The notes under the pieces were generated by a model, which saw only the letters and a program-made list of their open reading frames with translations, had not been told where the DNA came from and searched no databases. From an uncultured Candidatus Saccharibacteria bacterium (GTDB lineage: Bacteria > Patescibacteriota > Saccharimonadia > Saccharimonadales > JAGQNJ01): a stretch of 42,538 nucleotides of DNA. How positions within the stretch are numbered: the first letter of the stretch is position 1; each line of letters opens with the position of its first letter. Shown here one piece after another: positions 2,331-41,271 of the stretch. Both the position numbers and the translations under genes were made by a program. The stretch covers positions 165,245 through 207,782 of the forward strand of contig CAZBPY010000001.1 of assembly GCA_964493895.1 (NCBI GenBank). Direction: 5' to 3'.

Positions 2331-2668
2331 TTATACAGGCGTTACTCATTGTAGTTTCTATATTTATACTCTTTTACTTTTTGACAAATAGAAATACGAT
2401 GCAGGTTAGGGCTTATAAAAAAATAGCACTACTGCTGTGTGTGGCGTTGATGATCGTTTTCGTTTTGTACCCCGAATACCTTAATACTATTGCTAACAAG
2501 GTGGGAGTAGGCAGGGGTGCGGATCTGCTTTTGTATGTGTTTTTTGTAGCGTTTATTATTTTCAGCATTAATGTTTATCTGAAATTTAAAGAACTACGAG
2601 ATGAGATTTTTCGTTTATCCCGGACCATTGCTTTAATAGAAGCTAAAAATGATAAGAAAAATAAATAA
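2327..2668 (+). CDS. DUF2304 family membrane protein (GacJ/Rv3632-like partner of GT2)
   Basis: Three TM segments, VGVGRGADLLLY signature, C-terminal coiled segment ending LSRTIAL; ATGA overlap with the GT2 gene. Confidence 0.88.
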   Translation: MIIQALLIVVSIFILFYFLTNRNTMQVRAYKKIALLLCVALMIVFVLYPEYLNTIANKVGVGRGADLLLYVFFVAFIIFSINVYLKFKELRDEIFRLSRTIALIEAKNDKKNK

Positions 2669-3050
2669 CTCACTTATCAAGTATTTGATTGCCGGAGGCG
2701 TTGCATTTGTAACCGAGTACTCTATATTTATCTTGCTTTTTAGTGTTATCGGTATCGGTGTGCTTTTTGCTAATATGCTGGCATTTGCATGCGGTATATT
2801 AACAAGCTTTACTTTAAACCGCAGCTGGTCATTTAAGAAAAGCGTGTTCCACTATGCTAAAACCACCCAGGCTGTGTTATATGTAATGTTAGCCATTACA
2901 AACCTTGGCTTGACAAGTTTTGTGCTAAGCATGTCAAGAGCAATAGGTATTAGAGAAGAAATAATAAAACTACTAATGATGGGCGCGATTGTTGTGTGGA
3001 ACTTTTTAATTTTCAATAAGGTAATATTCAAGCAAAAGGCTATGGACTAG
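2649..3050 (+). CDS. GtrA family membrane protein (lipid-linked sugar translocation)
   Basis: KYLIAGGVAFVTEY, SFTLNRSWSF, WNFLIFNKVIF; about 4 TM segments, 133 aa. Confidence 0.88.
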   Translation: MIRKINNSLIKYLIAGGVAFVTEYSIFILLFSVIGIGVLFANMLAFACGILTSFTLNRSWSFKKSVFHYAKTTQAVLYVMLAITNLGLTSFVLSMSRAIGIREEIIKLLMMGAIVVWNFLIFNKVIFKQKAMD

Positions 3051-3055
3051 CGACA

Positions 3056-4405
3056 CTATTTGATTCTTCCCACAGCGTCAAACCTAAGTCCAGTACCTTC
3101 TAGTGAATTTTGGCTTATGCAGTTATCTGCATCATATATTAAATCGCCGTGCATAACTTTTTTGATGCGGTCATAATCCATTTCCTTAAATTCGGACCAA
3201 GCGGTTGCGATGATTAGAGCATCTGCTTTTGAGGCAGCACCTAAGACAGAATCGCATACTTCTATGGCTTTGTTTAAATCTCTTTTGGCTTCGCCATTGG
3301 CATACGGATCATATACCGAAACAGATGCCCCAAACTTGCTTAGTAAGTTTGCAATTTTAACACCAGGAGATCTGCGGGTGTCACTAGTACCTGCCTTGAA
3401 TGAGAGTCCCAATACGGCTACCTTTTTGTCTGCAAGGCTGCCGCCTAGCATTTCTTCTACACGACTGGCTATGTAGCCAGGCATGCTGTCGTTAACCTCG
3501 GTAGCAGCAGTCATAATTGGCATGTCGATACCATATTCGGCAGAGCTGCTAATCAGGCCTGAAACGTCCTTAGGGAAGCAACCGCCACCATAGCCGCGCC
3601 CAGCATTAAGGAAAGCTCGACCAATGCGCTTGTCAACACCTACAGCATCCATAACTTCTACTACGTCCGCATGCACTTTATCGCAGAGCTTGGCAATTGA
3701 GTTGGCGAATGAAATTTTTAGAGCCAAGAACGCATTGGCTGTAACTTTAATAAGTTCTGCACTCTCAAGCTGGGTGATGATATATTCGCCATTATGTTTT
3801 TTTAGTTCGTGTGCAATATCGAGTCCTATTATTTTTGCTATTTCAGGCGCACGCTCTTCTATAGTTTTGTACAGATCTATAACTTTTCTTATAGCCTCTT
3901 GATCATCCCCGCCTGCTACAACTCGGTCAAAAAGAAGGGTGTCATATATGGCTGTGCCTTCACGAAGAAATTCTGGGTTTGATACATAAGCTTGTCCTTT
4001 GGGTAGAAGCTCAATAACTTTTCCGCCAGTACCAACTGGCACGGTGCTTTTCTGTATATAAACAGCAGTTGGCTTCAAGTATTTTGCGGCAGTCTTGGCT
4101 GCCTTAAAAACATATTGCAAATCGGAACTTCCATCGGTATGATCAGGTGTTGCTACGCAAGAAAATACAAAATCAGCGTTTCTTAGTGCCTGTTCATAAT
4201 CAGTAGTTGCGGTTAATCTATTTTTTTCTATACCTGCGGTTATAGCCTTATCTAATCCATTCTCAAAAAAAGGAGCTCCACCGCTATTAATTACCTCTAC
4301 CTTGCTGGCGTCTATATCTAATGTAACTACCTCATGATCTGCTAGAGCGAATAACGCCGCAACGGTTGTACCAACATAGCCGCCACCAATAACTGTTATA
4401 TTCAC
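3056..4405 (-). CDS. ugd: UDP-glucose/GDP-mannose dehydrogenase family protein
   Basis: GGGYVG Rossmann motif, KSTVPVGT, SNPEFLREG, GYGGGCFPKD, LSFKAGTSDTRRSP; GTG start. Confidence 0.95.
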   Translation of the reverse strand: MNITVIGGGYVGTTVAALFALADHEVVTLDIDASKVEVINSGGAPFFENGLDKAITAGIEKNRLTATTDYEQALRNADFVFSCVATPDHTDGSSDLQYVFKAAKTAAKYLKPTAVYIQKSTVPVGTGGKVIELLPKGQAYVSNPEFLREGTAIYDTLLFDRVVAGGDDQEAIRKVIDLYKTIEERAPEIAKIIGLDIAHELKKHNGEYIITQLESAELIKVTANAFLALKISFANSIAKLCDKVHADVVEVMDAVGVDKRIGRAFLNAGRGYGGGCFPKDVSGLISSSAEYGIDMPIMTAATEVNDSMPGYIASRVEEMLGGSLADKKVAVLGLSFKAGTSDTRRSPGVKIANLLSKFGASVSVYDPYANGEAKRDLNKAIEVCDSVLGAASKADALIIATAWSEFKEMDYDRIKKVMHGDLIYDADNCISQNSLEGTGLRFDAVGRIK

Positions 4406-5275: not shown

Positions 5276-6129
5276 GACGATACCTCATTGCGTATATATT
5301 CTGCTAGATCATCCATCCAACTACGAGATTTGAAGCCGGATGATTGTATCTTATCAAGTTTGAGAGTACTCTGCAGGGGTCGCCGGGCAATACCAGTTTT
5401 GCCATGGTAATATTCCTCGGTGGATGTGTCGGTTACTTTCAAATCAAAGCCAGCATCAGCAAATATTTGTCTGGTAACTTCTGCCCAACTCACTGATTCA
5501 CCATCATTAGTAACATTGTAGGTGCCAAAAGGCGCCCCATTCGTTAATAGATGATCGATAGCTCGCACTAGTTCGCTAGTAAAAGTTAAGCGGCCAATCT
5601 GGTCGGAAACGACTGTTGGGCTAACACCTTTTTGACCAAGACCCAACATGGTTCTAACAAAATTTTTGCCTTCGCCAATCACCCAGCTGGTGCGCAGGAT
5701 ATAGAACTTATCTAGCTGTGATATCAGTAAATCACCGGCAGCCTTACTGGCTCCGTAGACATTTAATGGAGCAAAATCCTCATCTTCATCGTGCGCTGAC
5801 TGACTGCCGTCAAAGACATAGTCAGTAGATATATGTACTACTATCAGGTCGTTCTCCCAGGCAATATGGGCTAAGTTCTTGACGGCCTCGGCATTAACTT
5901 TCCAGGCAGCTTTGCGTCCCTCTTCGGTTTCAGCTCCATCGACATTTGTATATGCTGCTGCATTGATAACCACCTCGACATCAGACCAGTCAAAATTATC
6001 AACCGATTCTTTATTGGTGATATCCAGTTCGTCAATATCGGCGAATTGGGCTTTAGGATACTTAGCTCGTAAAGCTAGGCCTAGCTGTCCATTGGCTCCA
6101 ACAATAAAAATTTTTGAATCGTCCATCAT
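5272..6129 (-). CDS. rmlD: dTDP-4-dehydrorhamnose reductase
   Basis: [39 protein letters not shown] (YxxxK), LRTSWV. Confidence 0.95.
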
Positions 6130-13918: not shown

Positions 13919-14718
13919 GTCTATGGCTAGCTTTGCTGTTAGGTCTAGTCCAGGGTCTTACTGAATTTATCCCGGTGTCGAGTTCCGGCCACTTGGTTTT
14001 ATTGCACGATTGGTTTGGCATCAATAGATCGGGCTTGGCTTTTGATGTAGCACTGCATTTTGGAACTTTGCTGGCATTGCTGCTGTGTTTCCGTCACGAC
14101 TTACTTAAGCTAGCCAGAGGTGTTTTTCGAGGTGGCGCCGAGCGGCGCCTGGCCATCATCCTGGCGGTGGCTACCGTGCCGGCCGTGTTAACAGGTTTAT
14201 TTTTGGACAGTCTAGCTAGATCCGGTTTTCGCAGCCCGACTTTGGTGGCCCTGAATTTGATTATAGTGGCCATTTTAATGCTGGCCGCCGAGTGGTACTA
14301 TGCTCGCCATCAACCTAAAACAAAAAAAGTTGAGTCAACCGACTTAAAACAGGGCGCGGCAATCGGCCTAGCCCAGGCATTGGCCTTAGTGCCGGGAACA
14401 TCAAGGTCGGGTTTGACCATTTCCACCGGGTTATTTGCTGGCCTGGACAGGGTAGCGGCCACCAGGTTTTCATTTTTACTAGGCATACCGATTATGGCCG
14501 GAGCCATCATAAAAATCTTTGCTTTTGACGGCGGAGCCAGCCAGATCTCCAATCAACCGGCCATGTTTAGTGTCGGCATTATTGCCGCCTTCGTGTCCGG
14601 CTTGGCGGCGATTGCCTTCATGCTGCGCTTTCTAGCTAACCATTCCTTAAAGATCTTCGCGTACTATCGTATTGGTATTGGACTGCTAGTACTTCTATTT
14701 AGCGTAAGCAGCATGTAA
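13915..14718 (+). CDS. uppP: Undecaprenyl-diphosphatase
   Basis: GLVQGLTEFIPVSSSGHL, HFGTLLA, LVPGTSRSG, RFSFLLGIP. Confidence 0.97.
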   Translation: MSLWLALLLGLVQGLTEFIPVSSSGHLVLLHDWFGINRSGLAFDVALHFGTLLALLLCFRHDLLKLARGVFRGGAERRLAIILAVATVPAVLTGLFLDSLARSGFRSPTLVALNLIIVAILMLAAEWYYARHQPKTKKVESTDLKQGAAIGLAQALALVPGTSRSGLTISTGLFAGLDRVAATRFSFLLGIPIMAGAIIKIFAFDGGASQISNQPAMFSVGIIAAFVSGLAAIAFMLRFLANHSLKIFAYYRIGIGLLVLLFSVSSM

Positions 14719-36439: not shown

Positions 36440-37003
36440 ATGAGCGCCAAAATCGGAATCATTGTCAGCACCACCCGCCCTACCCGGGTTGGCCGCCACG
36501 TTGCCGAATGGTTTATGGATCAAATCGCCGACAGGCAAGATTTGGAATTCGAACTGCTTGACCTCAAAGAATGGAATTTGCCGTTTCTAAGCGAACCAGA
36601 GTCGCCAGCTACAGGAAACTACACCTTAGAATCGACCAAAAAGTGGAGTGCTAAGATTGATAGTCTAGACGGCTTTATATTTGTGACAGCTGAATATAAT
36701 AATGGGCCGCCGGCTCCTATGAAGAATGCCATCGACACCATTTATCACGAGTGGGATCGAAAACCAGTGGCCTTTGTCGGCTACGGCGGCTACGGAGCCA
36801 CCCGGGCAGTCGAACAACTCGCCGATATCACAGCCAAGGTTGGCATGGTGCCGCTGACTAAAACTTTCGTCGGCCTATTGGAACCCTGGGATTCGGTTCT
36901 GGACGGCGAAATCAAAGAAGAATACGTCCGCGGCAATGTCGGCAAGATGATTGATAACTTGAAGTGGTGGGCCGAGACTTTGAAACAAGCCCGCTCGTCA
37001 TAA
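36440..37003 (+). CDS. NADPH-dependent FMN reductase family (flavodoxin-like; quinone/azo reductase)
   Basis: IVSTTRPTRVG, FVTAEYNNGPPAPMKNAID, KPVAFVGYGGYGATRA; GGGAGG SD. Confidence 0.93.
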   Translation: MSAKIGIIVSTTRPTRVGRHVAEWFMDQIADRQDLEFELLDLKEWNLPFLSEPESPATGNYTLESTKKWSAKIDSLDGFIFVTAEYNNGPPAPMKNAIDTIYHEWDRKPVAFVGYGGYGATRAVEQLADITAKVGMVPLTKTFVGLLEPWDSVLDGEIKEEYVRGNVGKMIDNLKWWAETLKQARSS

Positions 37004-37077
37004 GCCTATTGTAGATAAACCAAATCTTCTCTGTTATACTTCGAATGTTCGAGTCTTGGGTAGATTCTGAGACTTGC

Positions 37078-37153
37078 GGGGCGGTAGCTCAGTGGTTAGA
37101 GCAGTCGGCTCATAACCGATTGGCCGAAGGTTCAATTCCTTCCCGCCCCACCA
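37078..37153 (+). tRNA. tRNA with CAU anticodon (probably Ile2/lysidine; elongator Met not excluded), CCA encoded
   Basis: Acceptor GGGGCGG/CCGCCCC, D-arm GCTC/GAGC, anticodon arm GTCGG-CTCATAA-CCGAT, T-arm GAAGG-TTCAATT-CCTTC, A73, CCA. Not fMet (no C1:A72, no three G:C pairs in the anticodon stem). Confidence 0.95.
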
Positions 37154-37163
37154 CGCAAACACT

Positions 37164-37508
37164 CTATACTTTGCTGAAGAGTAAACAGACCATTTTCTTT
37201 CTGAGTACTTCTGATCTTTGTTGATCTGATCCTTCACCTAAATACATACCTTTAGCTTCTGCAGCAGGCAAGTAATTACTTACTTGCTCATAAAGGTTGG
37301 TCTGGTTTGTACTTAGCACACCATTCGGGGCCAGGATATAAATAACATCATAACCAAGCGGTAATTCTGAAGTTTCTTCACCAATAACCATTGTAGGCAT
37401 TTCTCCCAGTGATTCTGCGAAACGATTTGCCCTGCCCATTGTTTCAGGTGATCCAATTACTAGAACGTTTGTGTTGCGTATATCGTGGTTGAAATCTATC
37501 GGTATCAT
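37164..37508 (-). CDS. Cassette 1: hypothetical small alpha/beta protein (114 aa)
   Basis: Open frame; NVLVIG and DVIYILAP strands; start MIPIDF has TGaTAAACT 7 nt upstream. Confidence 0.65.
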   Translation of the reverse strand: MIPIDFNHDIRNTNVLVIGSPETMGRANRFAESLGEMPTMVIGEETSELPLGYDVIYILAPNGVLSTNQTNLYEQVSNYLPAAEAKGMYLGEGSDQQRSEVLRKKMVCLLFSKV

Positions 37509-37537
37509 CAGGGGTAGTTTATCAAGTGCTGTATTGT

Positions 37538-37690
37538 GGTTCAACGCTCTTTACCCTGTACCGCCAGCTCTGTTCAATTTGCACTAGGCCAGCTTCTCGA
37601 AGTTGCTTTGACCAATCAGATTTAGAGTTCGCTATCAACCACTCCGCGACAGTACCGAGAGGTTCAAAAGTCTTCGCTTTATCGCCACCA
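37538..37690 (+). repeat. Array repeat copy 1 (153 bp; 11-nt deletion removes the peptide stop codon)
   Basis: GGTTCAACGCTCTTTA ... GGTTCAAAAGTCTTCGCTTTATCGCCACCA. Confidence 0.93.
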
Positions 37691-37697
37691 CGGATTT

Positions 37698-38288
37698 TTA
37701 ACCACCGAGGCCAACTATTACCTCAATTGACCGACAATCATCGCCCTGGACACCTTCTTCAAAGTAGTGAATCCTTGAGTCCGCAGTTCCGTTAACGCCT
37801 GATGGTTCTAAATCAGATAGGTATGCGATTGCTTCACTTTTATGCTCGGGAGCAAGGGCCTGCATGGCATAACCAGATAGACAATCTGCGATTGCTTCTC
37901 GACGAGGACGAGTGGTTTCGATTTCTTGGCTAGTTACGTGTCCAAATTCATGACCAACGATAAAGTCAATTACACCATCAACTTCATCACCGTAGGTTTC
38001 TGCAAGAAAATCGAGAAACTTCTGCGTAAACTCAATGGTTGGTCCGCCATGCTCTTCTGGCACAAAGCAAGCATTAGCAAGCTTTCCGTTTAAGCAAGCT
38101 CCTGCATCATCTTCATCAAGCATATCAAGCTCAACATCAGTAGCATCTACACCACGGCTGACCCAGAAATCTTGATACCGCTCAAAGGCAGAGTCTAAGA
38201 TCGCTTGTGGTTTATCGCATGGGGCCGCTTCGCTACTTACACCAGCTAGGAGGGCGGTTGCTATAAGAACAGGAGCAAGTTTTCGCAT
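37698..38288 (-). CDS. Cassette 2: secreted neutral zinc metallopeptidase (YpfJ-like)
   Basis: Signal peptide; NACF, VGHEFGHV (HExxH), REAIADCLSG, GTADSRIHYFEEG. Confidence 0.82.
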   Translation of the reverse strand: MRKLAPVLIATALLAGVSSEAAPCDKPQAILDSAFERYQDFWVSRGVDATDVELDMLDEDDAGACLNGKLANACFVPEEHGGPTIEFTQKFLDFLAETYGDEVDGVIDFIVGHEFGHVTSQEIETTRPRREAIADCLSGYAMQALAPEHKSEAIAYLSDLEPSGVNGTADSRIHYFEEGVQGDDCRSIEVIVGLGG

Positions 38289-38334
38289 TAAATCTATTTT
38301 TTCACCGCATCGCTATAATGCAAGCATAAGCTTA

Positions 38335-38498
38335 GGTTCAACGCTCTTTATCTTACTCTTTTCTAGTACCGCCACATCTGTTCGACTGTAACCCTTGACA
38401 TCTCTTCCAACTGATTTGTCCAGTCAGGATTAGGGTGAGCAATCAGCCACTCTACGACAGACTTCAAAGGTTCAACACTCTTCGCTTTATCGCCACCA
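38335..38498 (+). repeat. Array repeat copy 2 (164 bp, intact)
   Basis: GGTTCAACGCTCTTTATC ... GGTTCAACACTCTTCGCTTTATCGCCACCA. Confidence 0.95.
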
Positions 38499-38541
38499 CA
38501 AAGTATTGCATTTTACATATAACTATGTTAAAATAATAAGC

Positions 38542-38805
38542 ATGGCACGATCGACAGCCGCACAGTCAGAGTTAGTCACGGTTCGTCTTACTGGCGATGA
38601 TATAACTACTGCAAAAGAACTAGCAATGATTGCTGATGTTACTGGCTCAAACTTCTCTAGAGAGGTACGGGCTGGTTTACAGATGCGATTAGATCAAATC
38701 AGACAAGATCCTGCAGACAGAGCGGCTATTATAGCTGGGGTTGTCGAGCAGCACAGGGTAGCTGAAGAGTTTTTGGGTGAAGAAATACATATACCTAGAA
38801 GCTAG
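38542..38805 (+). CDS. Cassette 3: small putative DNA-binding protein (ribbon-helix-helix-like)
   Basis: Beta-like LVTVRLT followed by two amphipathic helices; TTGCAT...TAAAAT promoter 7 nt before the ATG; the stop codon TAG overlaps repeat 3. Confidence 0.65.
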   Translation: MARSTAAQSELVTVRLTGDDITTAKELAMIADVTGSNFSREVRAGLQMRLDQIRQDPADRAAIIAGVVEQHRVAEEFLGEEIHIPRS

Positions 38806-38968
38806 GTTCAACGCTCTTTATCTTGTAGCTAATTAGTACCGCCAACTCTGTTCAATGGTCACCGAACCAGCTTCTTTGAGCTGTAATGACCAGGCGGGAC
38901 TAGGGTTCGCAATCATCCATTCCACAACAGAACTCAAAGGTTCAAAACTCTTCGCTTTATCGCCACCA
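38805..38968 (+). repeat. Array repeat copy 3 (164 bp, intact)
   Basis: GGTTCAACGCTCTTTATC ... GGTTCAAAACTCTTCGCTTTATCGCCACCA. Confidence 0.95.
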
Positions 38969-39011
38969 GATTCCACTGTCCGTTTCATCGTAATAGTGCT
39001 AATGTATACTC

Positions 39012-39707
39012 ATGGATAATCAACAAAATATTGCCCCTCAAACTCAAACTCAAACTGATCAAAACCTAAACCAACCAAAGCAGCCCCAGAATAAAAAGAA
39101 AATCATAGTAGTCTCACTCATTGCAATCCTAATTCTAGCTGCATTCGGGGGCTTATACTATTGGCAAAACAGCAAGAATAAAAATTTGCAAAAACAACTG
39201 GATGCTACAAAGGCTCAATTAGAAAAACAGCAAACTAAAACAGAGGTTAATGATATTCCAACCACGAAAGCACCTGTTGATCCTAACTATGCAGGCTGGG
39301 CACAAGTGACAAACGAAACCTTAAATCCAAATCAAATAGCACTTTACAAGAACGGCACAGCAACATTATCTGTGTATAGTAAAGAACCCATGATGAACCT
39401 AAGCTCTAATGCTCCTGGATACTGCACACTACAGAATGAGGCGTGGACACCTTCTGATAGGTGTAATAGTAGCATTACTGAGTCGACAGTTAATGGCATG
39501 AACGCATATACGGCATATGGAGGAGCTCTCGGCCGAACTAAATACTTAGTAGTAGTCCAGAGCAACAATCAGTGGTTCGTCTTTAGTGACTATCTTGATT
39601 ATGACCCAGATCCAACAAAGGACTCTAATGTAGAAATAAACCAGGACAAAGCTCAACTAGCAAGTTCAATGGAAAAGCTCGTTGCCAAAGTACTTCCGCA
39701 AAATTAG
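39012..39707 (+). CDS. Cassette 4: bitopic surface protein (Gln/Asn-rich tail, TM, coiled coil, small extracellular domain with a Cys pair)
   Basis: KKKIIVVSLIAILILAAFGGLYYW TM, then KNLQKQLDATKAQLEKQQ heptads. Confidence 0.82.
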   Translation: MDNQQNIAPQTQTQTDQNLNQPKQPQNKKKIIVVSLIAILILAAFGGLYYWQNSKNKNLQKQLDATKAQLEKQQTKTEVNDIPTTKAPVDPNYAGWAQVTNETLNPNQIALYKNGTATLSVYSKEPMMNLSSNAPGYCTLQNEAWTPSDRCNSSITESTVNGMNAYTAYGGALGRTKYLVVVQSNNQWFVFSDYLDYDPDPTKDSNVEINQDKAQLASSMEKLVAKVLPQN

Positions 39708-39709
39708 AT

Positions 39710-39839
39710 TTAGTATCTCCACACCTGTTCAATCTGCACTGAACTTGCTCCTTTGAGCTGTGACACCCATCCAGGCTAGGGTTAGAAATCAGCCAATCAA
39801 CTACACTAGCCAAAGGTTCAAAAACACATCTTTTTCACC
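39710..39839 (+). repeat. Array repeat copy 4 (degenerate: left site lost, -1 frameshift, CCACCA end eroded)
   Basis: Minus strand reads FEPLASVVDWLISNPS /frameshift/ GWVSQLKGASSVQIEQVWRY-stop. Confidence 0.88.
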
Positions 39840-39953
39840 TTCAGTAATTTTATAGGCTTGTTTCTTGCTATCCATGCGGTCTTTGTTATTTCGTAAAATT
39901 ATGCTTTTACGACAACTTTGAATAAACGCTGCATCAAGCTTATAGTTATGTGT

Positions 39954-40457
39954 ATGAATGAAACACTAGATCAACCAAGAGAACACATAGATTTATCAAC
40001 TGATGAGTACACGGCTGCATTTGCTGCTGCTCCGCTTTATGCTAAGAAGTCTCTAGTTAAAATGAGAGCTGCAACACCAGGTGAAACTATTGTCACAAGG
40101 CTACAGGATGGCACAGTGGAAACCACAAACACAGCTGGTAAAAACCAAGTTGTTGTTACAAATCTTGGTGGTGAGGAGTATATTATCGATGCTGATAAGG
40201 CTGCTAAGCGTTATGAAGAAACAGATGAACCTGGCGTCTTTAGGGCAACAGGCATGGCAAGAATTATAGATAACCCTACTGGAGGTGACGTAAGCGTGAC
40301 GGCTCCTTGGGGTGAAGAGCAGCTTGGAGCGGCTGACTGTAAGTTTGCTGCACTCTATGATCCAACTCAGCCAGAGGTGGTAAGCGACGACCGCTATATA
40401 TTGGGTGCTGCCGAGTTTGCAGAAACCTACGGTCTTGTCGAAGAAGTGCTGGGATAA
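39954..40457 (+). CDS. Cassette 5: PGDYG-like protein with an internal tandem duplication
   Basis: Two halves ending GGEEYIIDADKAAKRYE and DDRYILGAAEFAETYG; TATAGT 7 nt before ATG 39954. Confidence 0.7.
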   Translation: MNETLDQPREHIDLSTDEYTAAFAAAPLYAKKSLVKMRAATPGETIVTRLQDGTVETTNTAGKNQVVVTNLGGEEYIIDADKAAKRYEETDEPGVFRATGMARIIDNPTGGDVSVTAPWGEEQLGAADCKFAALYDPTQPEVVSDDRYILGAAEFAETYGLVEEVLG

Positions 40458-40465
40458 CAAGCCTA

Positions 40466-40489
40466 GGTTCAAAGCTCTTCGCTTTATCG
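40466..40489 (+). repeat. Array repeat copy 5 (collapsed single site)
   Basis: ctaGGTTCAAAGCTCTTCGCTTTATCG; left-site flank joined to right-site core. Confidence 0.85.
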
Positions 40490-40560
40490 TCTACGTGTCA
40501 AAATTTTAACGGTTTAATCGATTAACGTGCAGTACCCTTAAGAATGTAAATAAGGAGACT

Positions 40561-40953
40561 ATGATGGCTCAACCAACCCACAAGGTAAAAGAGACTACTA
40601 CACGGGCCGGCGACACGGTTCAGAAAACGACCCAAGTTCAAGATGGTGCTGCTGGGGAAGAACATGCTACCACCGTGGTGGATCGAGTTATTTGGCTGGT
40701 GGCCGGACTTCTAACAGTCATTCTGGCTTTTAGGTTTGTGCTGGCATTGTTGGGAGCCAATCCGGAAAATGCTTTCGCCAACTTCATTTACAGTCTTTCC
40801 AGTCCGTTGGCAGCGCCATTTTTTGGGTTGTTCAGTTATGATAGCACCTATACGGGCGTTGGCCGCTTTGAATTTTTCACCCTGGTGGCCATAGCTGTCT
40901 ACCTGGTTATAGCCTGGCTAATTTCCAGAGTCATCACTCTGAACCAGGCTTAG
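40561..40953 (+). CDS. YggT family membrane protein
   Basis: RFVLALLGANPENAFANFIYSLSSPLAAPFFGLF; AGGAG SD. Confidence 0.85.
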   Translation: MMAQPTHKVKETTTRAGDTVQKTTQVQDGAAGEEHATTVVDRVIWLVAGLLTVILAFRFVLALLGANPENAFANFIYSLSSPLAAPFFGLFSYDSTYTGVGRFEFFTLVAIAVYLVIAWLISRVITLNQA

Positions 40954-40980
40954 ATCAAAACTCTTTGCTGCACCATCAAT

Positions 40981-41271
40981 TTACTTGACGCCTTGGATGT
41001 GGGTTTCGCAGACATGGCCTTTGTTGCGAATAGTTAAAGTTAGAATCGTGGCAGTGGCTAGAAATTGAATGGTGCCCAACACTATGAAAACTAGAGTCCC
41101 TAAATAGATTGCATTTGCCAGAACCAGGGCCGAGGAAATCATCCATATGCTGAAGGCTCGTATGCTAATACCAGCGCTGCATTTCTCGACAATTAGGTGA
41201 TGAATCTGCGGCAGGTAGGCGTAACCGCCAAGAAAGGCTCCGCTTAGCCCGACAATGTTAAACATGTCCAT
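40981..41271 (-). CDS. PQ-loop (SemiSWEET-like) three-helix membrane protein
   Basis: YLPQIHHL...SAGIS motif, three TM segments. Confidence 0.85.
   Translation of the reverse strand: MDMFNIVGLSGAFLGGYAYLPQIHHLIVEKCSAGISIRAFSIWMISSALVLANAIYLGTLVFIVLGTIQFLATATILTLTIRNKGHVCETHIQGVK

Follow-up and report, generated by a model that had tools for sequence, protein, structure and literature searches.

Five repeat copies that lie behind a tRNA-Met gene in a 42,538-nt stretch of contig CAZBPY010000001.1 from an uncultured Candidatus Saccharibacteria bacterium (this whole stretch being referred to as the window) are probably the right ends of small integrative elements that were driven by large serine recombinases (LSRs) and targeted the 3' ends of tRNA genes in Saccharibacteria. 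Three lines of evidence carry this view: the identity of an orphan 44-codon frame in the repeat unit, the split arrangement of the corresponding recombinase gene in relatives and the geometry of the attachment half-sites. An earlier reading made from the letters of the window (the sequence-only reading) had instead emphasized a polar decay of the array. That polarity adds little, since the outward-pushing growth of tRNA islands has already been published and the gradient fails across arrays. The origin of the repeats matters more: small elements carrying the attachment site (attP) inside their own serine integrase gene are probably a main source of accessory genes in Saccharibacteria, which have genomes of about 0.7–1 Mb and for which few mobile elements have been described. 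Such elements would represent the bacterial, serine-type counterpart of the archaeal self-disrupting integrases, as the latter are presented in a review (PMC8371274), and the compact att sites together with a 5-nt shift between half-sites make the system directly testable. In the literature searched, where most subscription journals were not covered, no description of tRNA-associated serine-recombinase elements or gene cassettes of Saccharibacteria was found, nor was a natural serine integrase with attP within the integrase gene.

The repeat unit carries an orphan recombinase tail

A full unit of about 166 nt consists of an L box, TAGGTTCAACGCTCTTTATCTT, followed by approximately 110 nt of coding-like sequence and an R box, AGGTTCAAAA[C/G]TCTTCGCTTTATCGCCACCA. 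The E-values of the copies (5.8e-83 to 2.9e-5) place the repeats beyond chance, and no further copy was found in the genome to which the window belongs (0.71 Mb, 99.66% complete). On the minus strand, the intact units have the consensus GGDKAKxFEPLxxVVEWLIxNPxPxWxxQLKEAxxVxIEQxWRY, then a stop. Among 10 units, the differences per site by codon position were 0.36, 0.27 and 0.46, with a median dN/dS of 0.31 over the 45 pairs; on this substitution pattern, the frame is to be regarded as coding. At the same time, it is start-less: in 11 of 18 units, neither ATG nor GTG nor TTG occurs in frame ahead of the upstream stop (for one of these 11, only 30 codons upstream were read and no stop was reached).

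Judging from profile and protein alignments, this orphan frame is the C-terminal tail of an LSR. A profile of 26 tails aligned to the last 47 residues of P0135 (hhalign 98.4%, E 6.5e-15), a 563-amino-acid protein with Resolvase and Recombinase domains that is encoded on a 5.2-kb contig and continues ...VIENTAGGTEDKTLEPLNSIAEWLMDNPGIAWLDELSAAGATPYVQTYSY past the point where its integrated-form homologues stop. Residues 519/520–563 of the same protein matched window units 1–3 (tblastn, E 1e-7 to 2e-5). When the peptide profile was run against 1.84 billion proteins, 23 representatives were matched, 21 of which are open reading frames (ORFs) of 46–98 amino acids; in these 21, the peptide sits at the C-terminus, behind unrelated N-termini.

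It is highly improbable that the 44-codon frame is instead a working small protein or RNA of the array, e.g., an excisionase-like factor, selected in place. A dN/dS of about 0.31 and the 21 of 23 library matches called as ORFs of their own would suit such a product, but the start-less state of 11 of the 18 units, the unrelated N-termini of the database ORFs, the stops or frameshifts in several units and the lack of an Rfam family match all speak against it, and the coding signature is explained as inherited once the tail is the end of an LSR. A tmRNA-like or other RNA gene was rejected as well: Rfam at E ≤ 1 over positions 36500–41000 returned the tRNA only, leaving the repeat unit without a match, and in four related loci it returned only tRNAs and group I introns. 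In viral contigs, there were 31 pattern matches, none of which was confirmed by tblastn.

Another candidate, the tail as the C-terminus of a large surface protein at the distal end of the array of genome G006 (locus L018), was discarded. The 842-amino-acid surface ORF of G006 ends in its own LADTG-hydrophobic-basic anchor and is unlike a tail-fused protein of genome G076 (best E 0.77). In the latter (L036, 1474–3108), a tail-family fragment is fused in frame to a large surface-type protein containing fn3, with an open frame of 766 amino acids, and this fusion is read as accidental, at an attR joint.

The recombinase gene is split across the element in related genomes

In genome G004, the 3' end of tRNA-Leu(gag) is overlapped by an LSR ORF of 529 amino acids that reads into it in antisense and terminates as ...AIEMSSGADERT, with SSGADERT as the last residues, and a tail-family fragment lies on the same strand, 3.9 kb from the LSR. 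Most homologues of this recombinase among the 120 matches listed are 520–527 amino acids long, and the two of this length that were retrieved both end in SSGA[DR]ERT, which is the integrated form. Genome G056 has tRNA-Leu(tag), the LSR body, four cargo genes and then L, tail and R within 6.3 kb; the split layout was also found at an intron-bearing tRNA-Met in G295 (L141), and the LSR bodies of G380 and G017 (L139) likewise read into tRNA-Met. LSR-bearing elements of this type in related Saccharibacteria are 4.5–6.3 kb long, the LSR abutting the tRNA at one end and the tail lying at the other.

A convergent tRNA overlaps the 3' end of the LSR by about 19 nt in 20 of 29 loci (15 Leu, 4 Pro and 1 Met), or in 21 loci when G295 is counted from the intron-aware run, and at least four of the LSR loci remaining without such an overlap are at contig ends. 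The tail profile matched 33 of the 401 genomes of the order that were searched (a tally that counts G348), and in 13 of these 33 genomes a single contig carries both the tail and an LSR, encoded by the same strand and arranged as expected. If such an element were circularized, body and tail of the LSR would be joined, which places attP inside the LSR gene. The relatives have the self-splitting layout, in which the body marks the attL end and the tail the attR end, and P0135 provides the intact fusion.

Two further observations concern these LSR bodies. Within their last 250 nt, AGGTTCAA(G/A) occurs another two times, oriented like its copies in the tRNA, L and R; these motifs may be additional binding sites or merely follow from the coding sequence, and they are located at 5291 and 5372 of L080 (flipped), at 3154 and 3235 of L112, and at 3142 and 3223 of L141 (flipped), where they encode a repeated peptide, FLNL. 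In L139 (G017:C15:3000-18000), where the LSR body reads into the intron-bearing tRNA-Met, neither a tail nor an R box is present within 11 kb, and the FMN-reductase and HxlR genes, which precede the tRNA in the window, are inverted about 8 kb downstream; this arrangement may be an inversion linked to the element.

Half-site geometry of the repeat and the tRNA end

The tRNA-Met (CAT) gene of the window (37078..37153, plus strand; ARAGORN; Rfam tRNA, 76.7 bits) has the 3' end GGTTCAA-12 nt-CCACCA, i.e., an attB-type half-site. Two elements are common to the R box and the end of its cognate tRNA, namely the T-loop motif GGTTCAA and the final 6–7 nt, this terminal core being CCACCA for Met and Leu(tag), GCACCA for Leu(gag) and CGACCA for Pro. 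The spacer from GGTTCAA to the core is 17 nt in R versus 12 nt in the tRNA, and this 5-nt difference was measured for Met in the window and in G295, for Leu(gag) in locus L046 and for Leu(tag) in G056. In the array, attB-type spacing occurs only in the tRNA; in all intact R boxes the spacer is 17 nt long, as in attP.

In serine integrases, the ZD motif of attB is 5 bp closer to the centre than that of attP (PMC3783163). On this reading, the tRNA end would correspond to the B half-site and R to the P half-site, and because a core of 6–7 nt (CCACCA or CCCACCA) is common to both sites, a common dinucleotide exists. The rule for the LI/A118 serine integrase resembles the present case, with the shared motif 5 bp closer to the crossover in attB; at the same time, it was set on phage systems with roughly symmetric sites (PMC3783163), whereas the B' and P' half-sites are not recognisable here. 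In the right arms, no inverted copy of GGTTCAA was recognised on reading the flanks. The L box is doubtful as an attB-spaced site: its 12-nt spacing fits, but the 6-mer after it does not resemble the core, either in the Met or in the Leu type. The L box occurs in LSR-bearing elements too.

Proposed origin of the array

According to the proposed mechanism, attP would lie inside the LSR gene, approximately 44 codons before its stop, so that integration would split the gene. The LSR body (about 520 amino acids) would stay at the tRNA, read antisense into the tRNA end and stop after about six foreign codons, and the 44-codon tail would go to the far end of the element with the left half-site of attP (the R box) and the conserved box past the stop (the L box). 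Each unit of the window would be such a far end (the attR side), and the gene on its left would be cargo of the same element. Five units would then have entered at the tRNA in succession, presumably losing their LSR bodies by decay. Partial LSR bodies that keep only the tRNA-proximal end, with open frames of 31–223 amino acids, were found in G091, G167, G290, G069, G352, G179, G333 and G370; this apparent whittling towards the tRNA supports decay after integration, as a pattern from other genomes, and decay may apply to the Met arrays as well. The window array has no LSR gene, and the window holds scars, not an element. With the LSR bodies gone and the genome itself without an LSR of this family, the array would be currently inert.

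The pairing of cargo and unit comes from cargo 4 (39918..40457, plus strand), a PGDYG-like ORF (Pfam PF14083, E 8.5e-5, below the family cut-off). From 39960, its product is 81% identical (135/166 amino acids; blastp E 2e-105) to that of the final cargo gene in the element of G295, which bears an LSR and is located at tRNA-Met. That gene is directly followed by L, tail and R, and cargo 4 in the window is followed by unit 5, so the match assigns a cargo to the unit on its right. The opposite linkage, a unit with the cargo on its own right, had been taken from a 617-nt alignment of G006 and the metagenome locus L067 (M67) and was dropped; unit 6 of G006 is 79% identical to unit 3 of M67 versus 81–86% to other units.

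The window units are 70–77% alike among themselves and up to 79–81% alike to units of other genomes, and units of different genomes are up to 81–86% alike. Since units within an array are no more alike than units between genomes, they point to a shared pool rather than to local duplication. The cargo in relatives (GNAT, APH, NUDIX, MazF, kinases, ABC-F ATPase) is typical accessory material, and no recombinase was found within 1.5 kb of 26 tail loci when ORFs of at least 110 amino acids were scanned (75 of 82 listed ORFs; the seven left out are mostly overlapping or short). In the eight-unit array of G006, it includes an ABC-F type ATPase (498 amino acids), an APH-family phosphotransferase (310 amino acids), two P-loop kinases, an RNHCP-domain protein and an NT5C nucleotidase, i.e., accessory or resistance-like functions.

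Several results weigh against this origin. No significant remnant of an LSR body was detected to the right of 25 junctions (best E 0.19), which leaves the clean tRNA/cargo and R/cargo joints, with cargo starting directly after CCACCA, unexplained. At G006 unit 6, one 78-amino-acid tblastn alignment runs about 30 amino acids upstream of the tail; the upstream part alone is not significant (E 1.1). Among the matches listed, only one intact LSR-plus-tail protein, P0135, was found: its residues 500–563 used as a query matched P0135 itself and nothing else, and the search with the tail profile for longer proteins gave none at E ≤ 0.01, a null result of little weight. An LSR of the tail family is missing from the window and from its genome (200-amino-acid C-terminal query, E ≤ 1e-10), and a relationship of the tail to the two LSRs that this genome does encode was rejected, as there is no likeness (hhalign probability 0.3%). 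Finally, attL is not an expected target of serine integrases, and repeated entry at an occupied tRNA would therefore need loss of the P' arm or a relaxed requirement for B'.

The two LSRs of the window's genome lie elsewhere. The first (433 amino acids; G000:C2:200551-203985, L056) is convergent with tRNA-Gln(CTG), 154 nt away, and adjoins genes that are restriction-modification-like by translation; the second (420 amino acids) is at C3:166496.

The missing bodies are what would be expected if the units were recombinase-less cassettes (cargo with L, tail and R) that were moved singly in trans by a visiting LSR, in the manner of an integron, and could be gained or lost at several positions, in which case their order would carry no time signal. 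This alternative is unlikely, even with several observations on its side. No trace of an LSR body is present at the 25 junctions, the cargo follows CCACCA directly, and the cassettes are 0.3–2.2 kb long against 4.5–6.3 kb for the LSR-bearing elements. Moreover, tRNA-Leu and a terminator-like sequence are separated in L046 by just one cassette, itself LSR-less, and in L051 this sequence comes straight after the tRNA. The objections come from the sites: attP would be incomplete in a circle that lacks the P' arm, and the R boxes have attP spacing and should not act as attB. Neither a circular junction nor an empty site was found in four runs (one strain; contigs only).

Origin from the right ends of LSR-driven elements leaves room for a broader and more speculative proposal, which taken as a whole is rather doubtful. 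It comprises a bacterial self-splitting LSR family in Saccharibacteria, in which the swap of the last 44 residues for about six tRNA-encoded ones could act as a switch of directionality or immobilisation, and a gene-capture platform, which the orphan tails accumulating behind tRNAs with their attP half-sites could provide and on which visiting integrases would add or remove single-gene cassettes. If true, ultra-small genomes would possess a counterpart of the integron that is based on a serine recombinase.

State of the copies and order of arrival

The sequence-only reading described the five copies correctly in every detail, positions included. Unit 1 (37536..37690, plus strand; 117 bits) keeps both boxes, the L box (37536–37557) with one change (TGG for AGG) and the R box (37660–37690) ending in CCACCA, and has an 11-nt gap relative to copies 2 and 3 by which the minus-strand tail frame (37558–37689) lost its stop codon. 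Units 2 (38333..38498, plus strand; R box 38468–38498; 145 bits) and 3 (38803..38968, plus strand; R box 38938–38968; 150 bits) are whole, with an L box, an open 44-codon minus-strand frame with its stop (38363–38497 and 38833–38967, respectively) and an R box ending in CCACCA; the frame of unit 3 matched P0135 residues 519–563 at E 1e-7. Unit 4 (about 39708..39844, plus strand; 79 bits, positions 29–145 of the hidden Markov model only) is without the L box, has a 1-nt gap that shifts the tail frame, and retains only GGTTCAAAA of the R box before diverging. Unit 5 (40464..40489, plus strand; 17.8 bits) is a remnant of the R core, in which 24 of 25 nt match and TCTAC then replaces CCACC.

The last copy does not appear to have eroded slowly. 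Its left flank, AAGCCTAGG, is of the L-box type and its core of the R-box type, so that it looks like the product of one deletion between the L and R direct repeats, AGGTTCAA, by which the tail would have been removed in a single step. The fifth site of M67 is similarly R-only, an L-flank and R-core hybrid preceded by TAG.

Units were scored with an nhmmer profile built from full units of other genomes (leave-one-genome-out). From the tRNA outward, the scores in bits were 117, 145, 150, 79 and 18 in the window (Spearman −0.6, p = 0.28, n = 5); 106, 62, 110, 147, 128, 164, 55 and 130 in G006 (Spearman +0.31); 126, 145, 150, 120 and 15.5 in M67 (Spearman −0.6); and 152 and 157 in G005 (L019), where n = 2 and no coefficient was computed. 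The trend claimed earlier, with the most distal copies the most eroded, is not significant in the window and did not hold as a general rule (pooled permutation of rank against intactness within the four arrays, one-sided P = 0.38). In none of the four arrays does the proximal unit rank as the best preserved, and in two of them the worst unit is last; erosion affects the three proximal units of G006, whose units 4–6 are intact. The chance that the two worst of five units are the two most distal is 1 in 10.

The further expectation that tRNA-distal cassettes are shared more widely was not borne out by the one informative pair, G006 and M67, which share interior and proximal material and not the most distal. 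Their flanks are about 79% identical, and one interior cassette is common to both (68% at the amino acid level). No cargo is common to the window, G005 and G002, and what the window has in common with G006 is limited to the N-terminal part of a single cargo. Units 2 and 3 of M67 are identical to each other over about 50 nt in their centre, suggestive of gene conversion between them. Cargo 4, the most distal of the window, is 81% identical to its counterpart in another family, while the flanking FMN reductase is 60–78% identical within the genus, and this comparison makes the distal cassette a fairly recent import rather than an ancient one. The four runs holding the locus, all from one study, contain the same strain (0 differences on most pieces) and no joints; they are fragmentary contigs at 2–7x, whose loose ends at 37384 and 38692 are not interpretable.

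Entry at the tRNA itself, with older units being pushed outward, fared better than the gradient. The attR-type scars, the restriction of attB-type spacing to the tRNA and the model published for the growth of tRNA and ssrA islands (10.1101/2020.12.28.424599; PMC3146451) speak for it, the decay and sharing evidence does not, and new entry at the tRNA is plausible and, since only the tRNA has attB-type spacing, mechanistically expected. Directly after tRNA-Met in G006 (L018, about 14172–14473) and in the matching stretch of L067, there is an insert of about 290 nt, and the 178 nt of it next to the tRNA are 97% identical between the two species. It is strongly structured (minimum free energy −84 kcal/mol, z −2.9), has no Rfam family match, and its last 20 nt exactly repeat the 3' end of the tRNA. 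The insert would fit a recent entry at the tRNA, though by a different kind of element; a ribozyme-like RNA or a very small integrative element without coding sequence are possible identities.

A stricter version, in which the array is a chronological record with every unit entering at the tRNA and erosion reporting age as in CRISPR or integron arrays, is doubtful. The distal position of the worst unit in the window and in M67, attB-type spacing confined to the tRNA, the nearly identical interspecies DNA directly at the tRNA in G006 and M67, and the push-outward model published for tRNA islands can be cited in its support. It is countered by the eroded proximal units of G006, by the pooled test and the absence of any array with its proximal unit best preserved, by copy 5 and the fifth site of M67 as single deletions, by the identical block in M67 units 2 and 3, by distal cassettes not common to G006 and M67, and by a most distal cargo that is not ancient. 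The decay state is not a dependable record of the order of arrival and is not clock-like. The likeness to CRISPR and integron arrays that had also been suggested is retained for the architecture only, as neither an integron integrase nor an attC hairpin was detected, nor was there any cas context.

Relation to known systems

The array is filed as a variant of tandem accretion at a tRNA by serine-recombinase elements. The ssrA islands of Dehalococcoides are closest in mechanism, being likewise tandem, downstream of an essential small-RNA gene and bounded by the repeat of its 3' end (PMC3146451). In these islands, a large serine recombinase (DsiB) is located on the reverse strand next to attL, some islands are without an integration module, and cis-mobilizable relics were formed by accretion (PMC3146451). 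The present array differs in its tRNA target, in one-gene cassettes of 0.3–2.2 kb, in an exact core of only 6–7 nt, and in the location of attP within the recombinase ORF, so that each right end carries an orphan 44-codon tail.

The SSV-type 'suicidal' integrases also have the site within the integrase gene, and integration into a tRNA splits that gene to both ends of the element (PMC8371274). In the same review, self-disrupting integrases are given as exclusive to archaea (PMC8371274). The SSV-type enzymes are archaeal tyrosine recombinases, whereas a bacterial LSR with Resolvase and Recombinase domains is concerned here. Moreover, only the last 44 of about 563 residues are removed in the present case, and the enzyme may stay active.

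Like integrons, the array has one-gene cassettes, a conserved recombination module between them and one anchoring entry site, and several cargo ORFs have their stop codon inside the repeat module. Unlike integrons, it has no IntI: no recombinase is present among the array ORFs, and the sole PF00589 match in the genome, a tyrosine recombinase at C1:46902, is about 155 kb from the array on the contig. The family of the recombinase is different as well. The L and R boxes are direct repeats, unlike the arrangement of integron attC sites, and none of the 11 reported inverted pairs lies inside a unit.

The integrases of tycheposons are tyrosine recombinases. Their repeats are true partial tRNAs, whereas attP half-sites with a coding tail are found here. 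The tycheposon islands of Prochlorococcus resemble the array in entry at a tRNA, in the distal position of older material and in the presence of partial repeats and degraded remnants (10.1101/2020.12.28.424599). Heterogeneity is expected, in the same paper, to be highest next to the tRNA (10.1101/2020.12.28.424599).

Other features of the locus

The remaining genes between the copies are small and unrelated to one another. Cargo 0, between the tRNA and unit 1, is a 126-amino-acid ORF (37164..37544, minus strand) with no Pfam family at E ≤ 0.1. Cargo 1 (37698..38288, minus strand; 196 amino acids) likewise has no Pfam family and shows, from its translation, an N-terminal hydrophobic stretch and an HEFGH motif. 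Cargo 2 (38506..38805, plus strand) is a small ORF of 99 amino acids when read from TTG, with an ATG at 38543, and its TAG stop coincides with the initial three bases of the unit 3 L box. Cargo 3 (39012..39707, plus strand; 231 amino acids) resembles in its N-terminal part the cargo after unit 2 of G006. Beyond unit 5, a YGGT-family gene (40561..40953, plus strand) forms a conserved distal flank, the same gene being found beyond the G005 array.

Additionally, the tRNA-Met that anchors the arrays carries a group I intron in its anticodon loop in several relatives; the window tRNA-Met has no intron. With Rfam RF00028, the intron scored 61.5 bits in G005 (L019, 8663–8853) and 66 bits in M67 (L067, 12351–12546), and ARAGORN reported tRNA-Met introns of 447 nt in G017 (L139, 3015–3537) and 607 nt in G295 (L141 flipped, 2377–3059).

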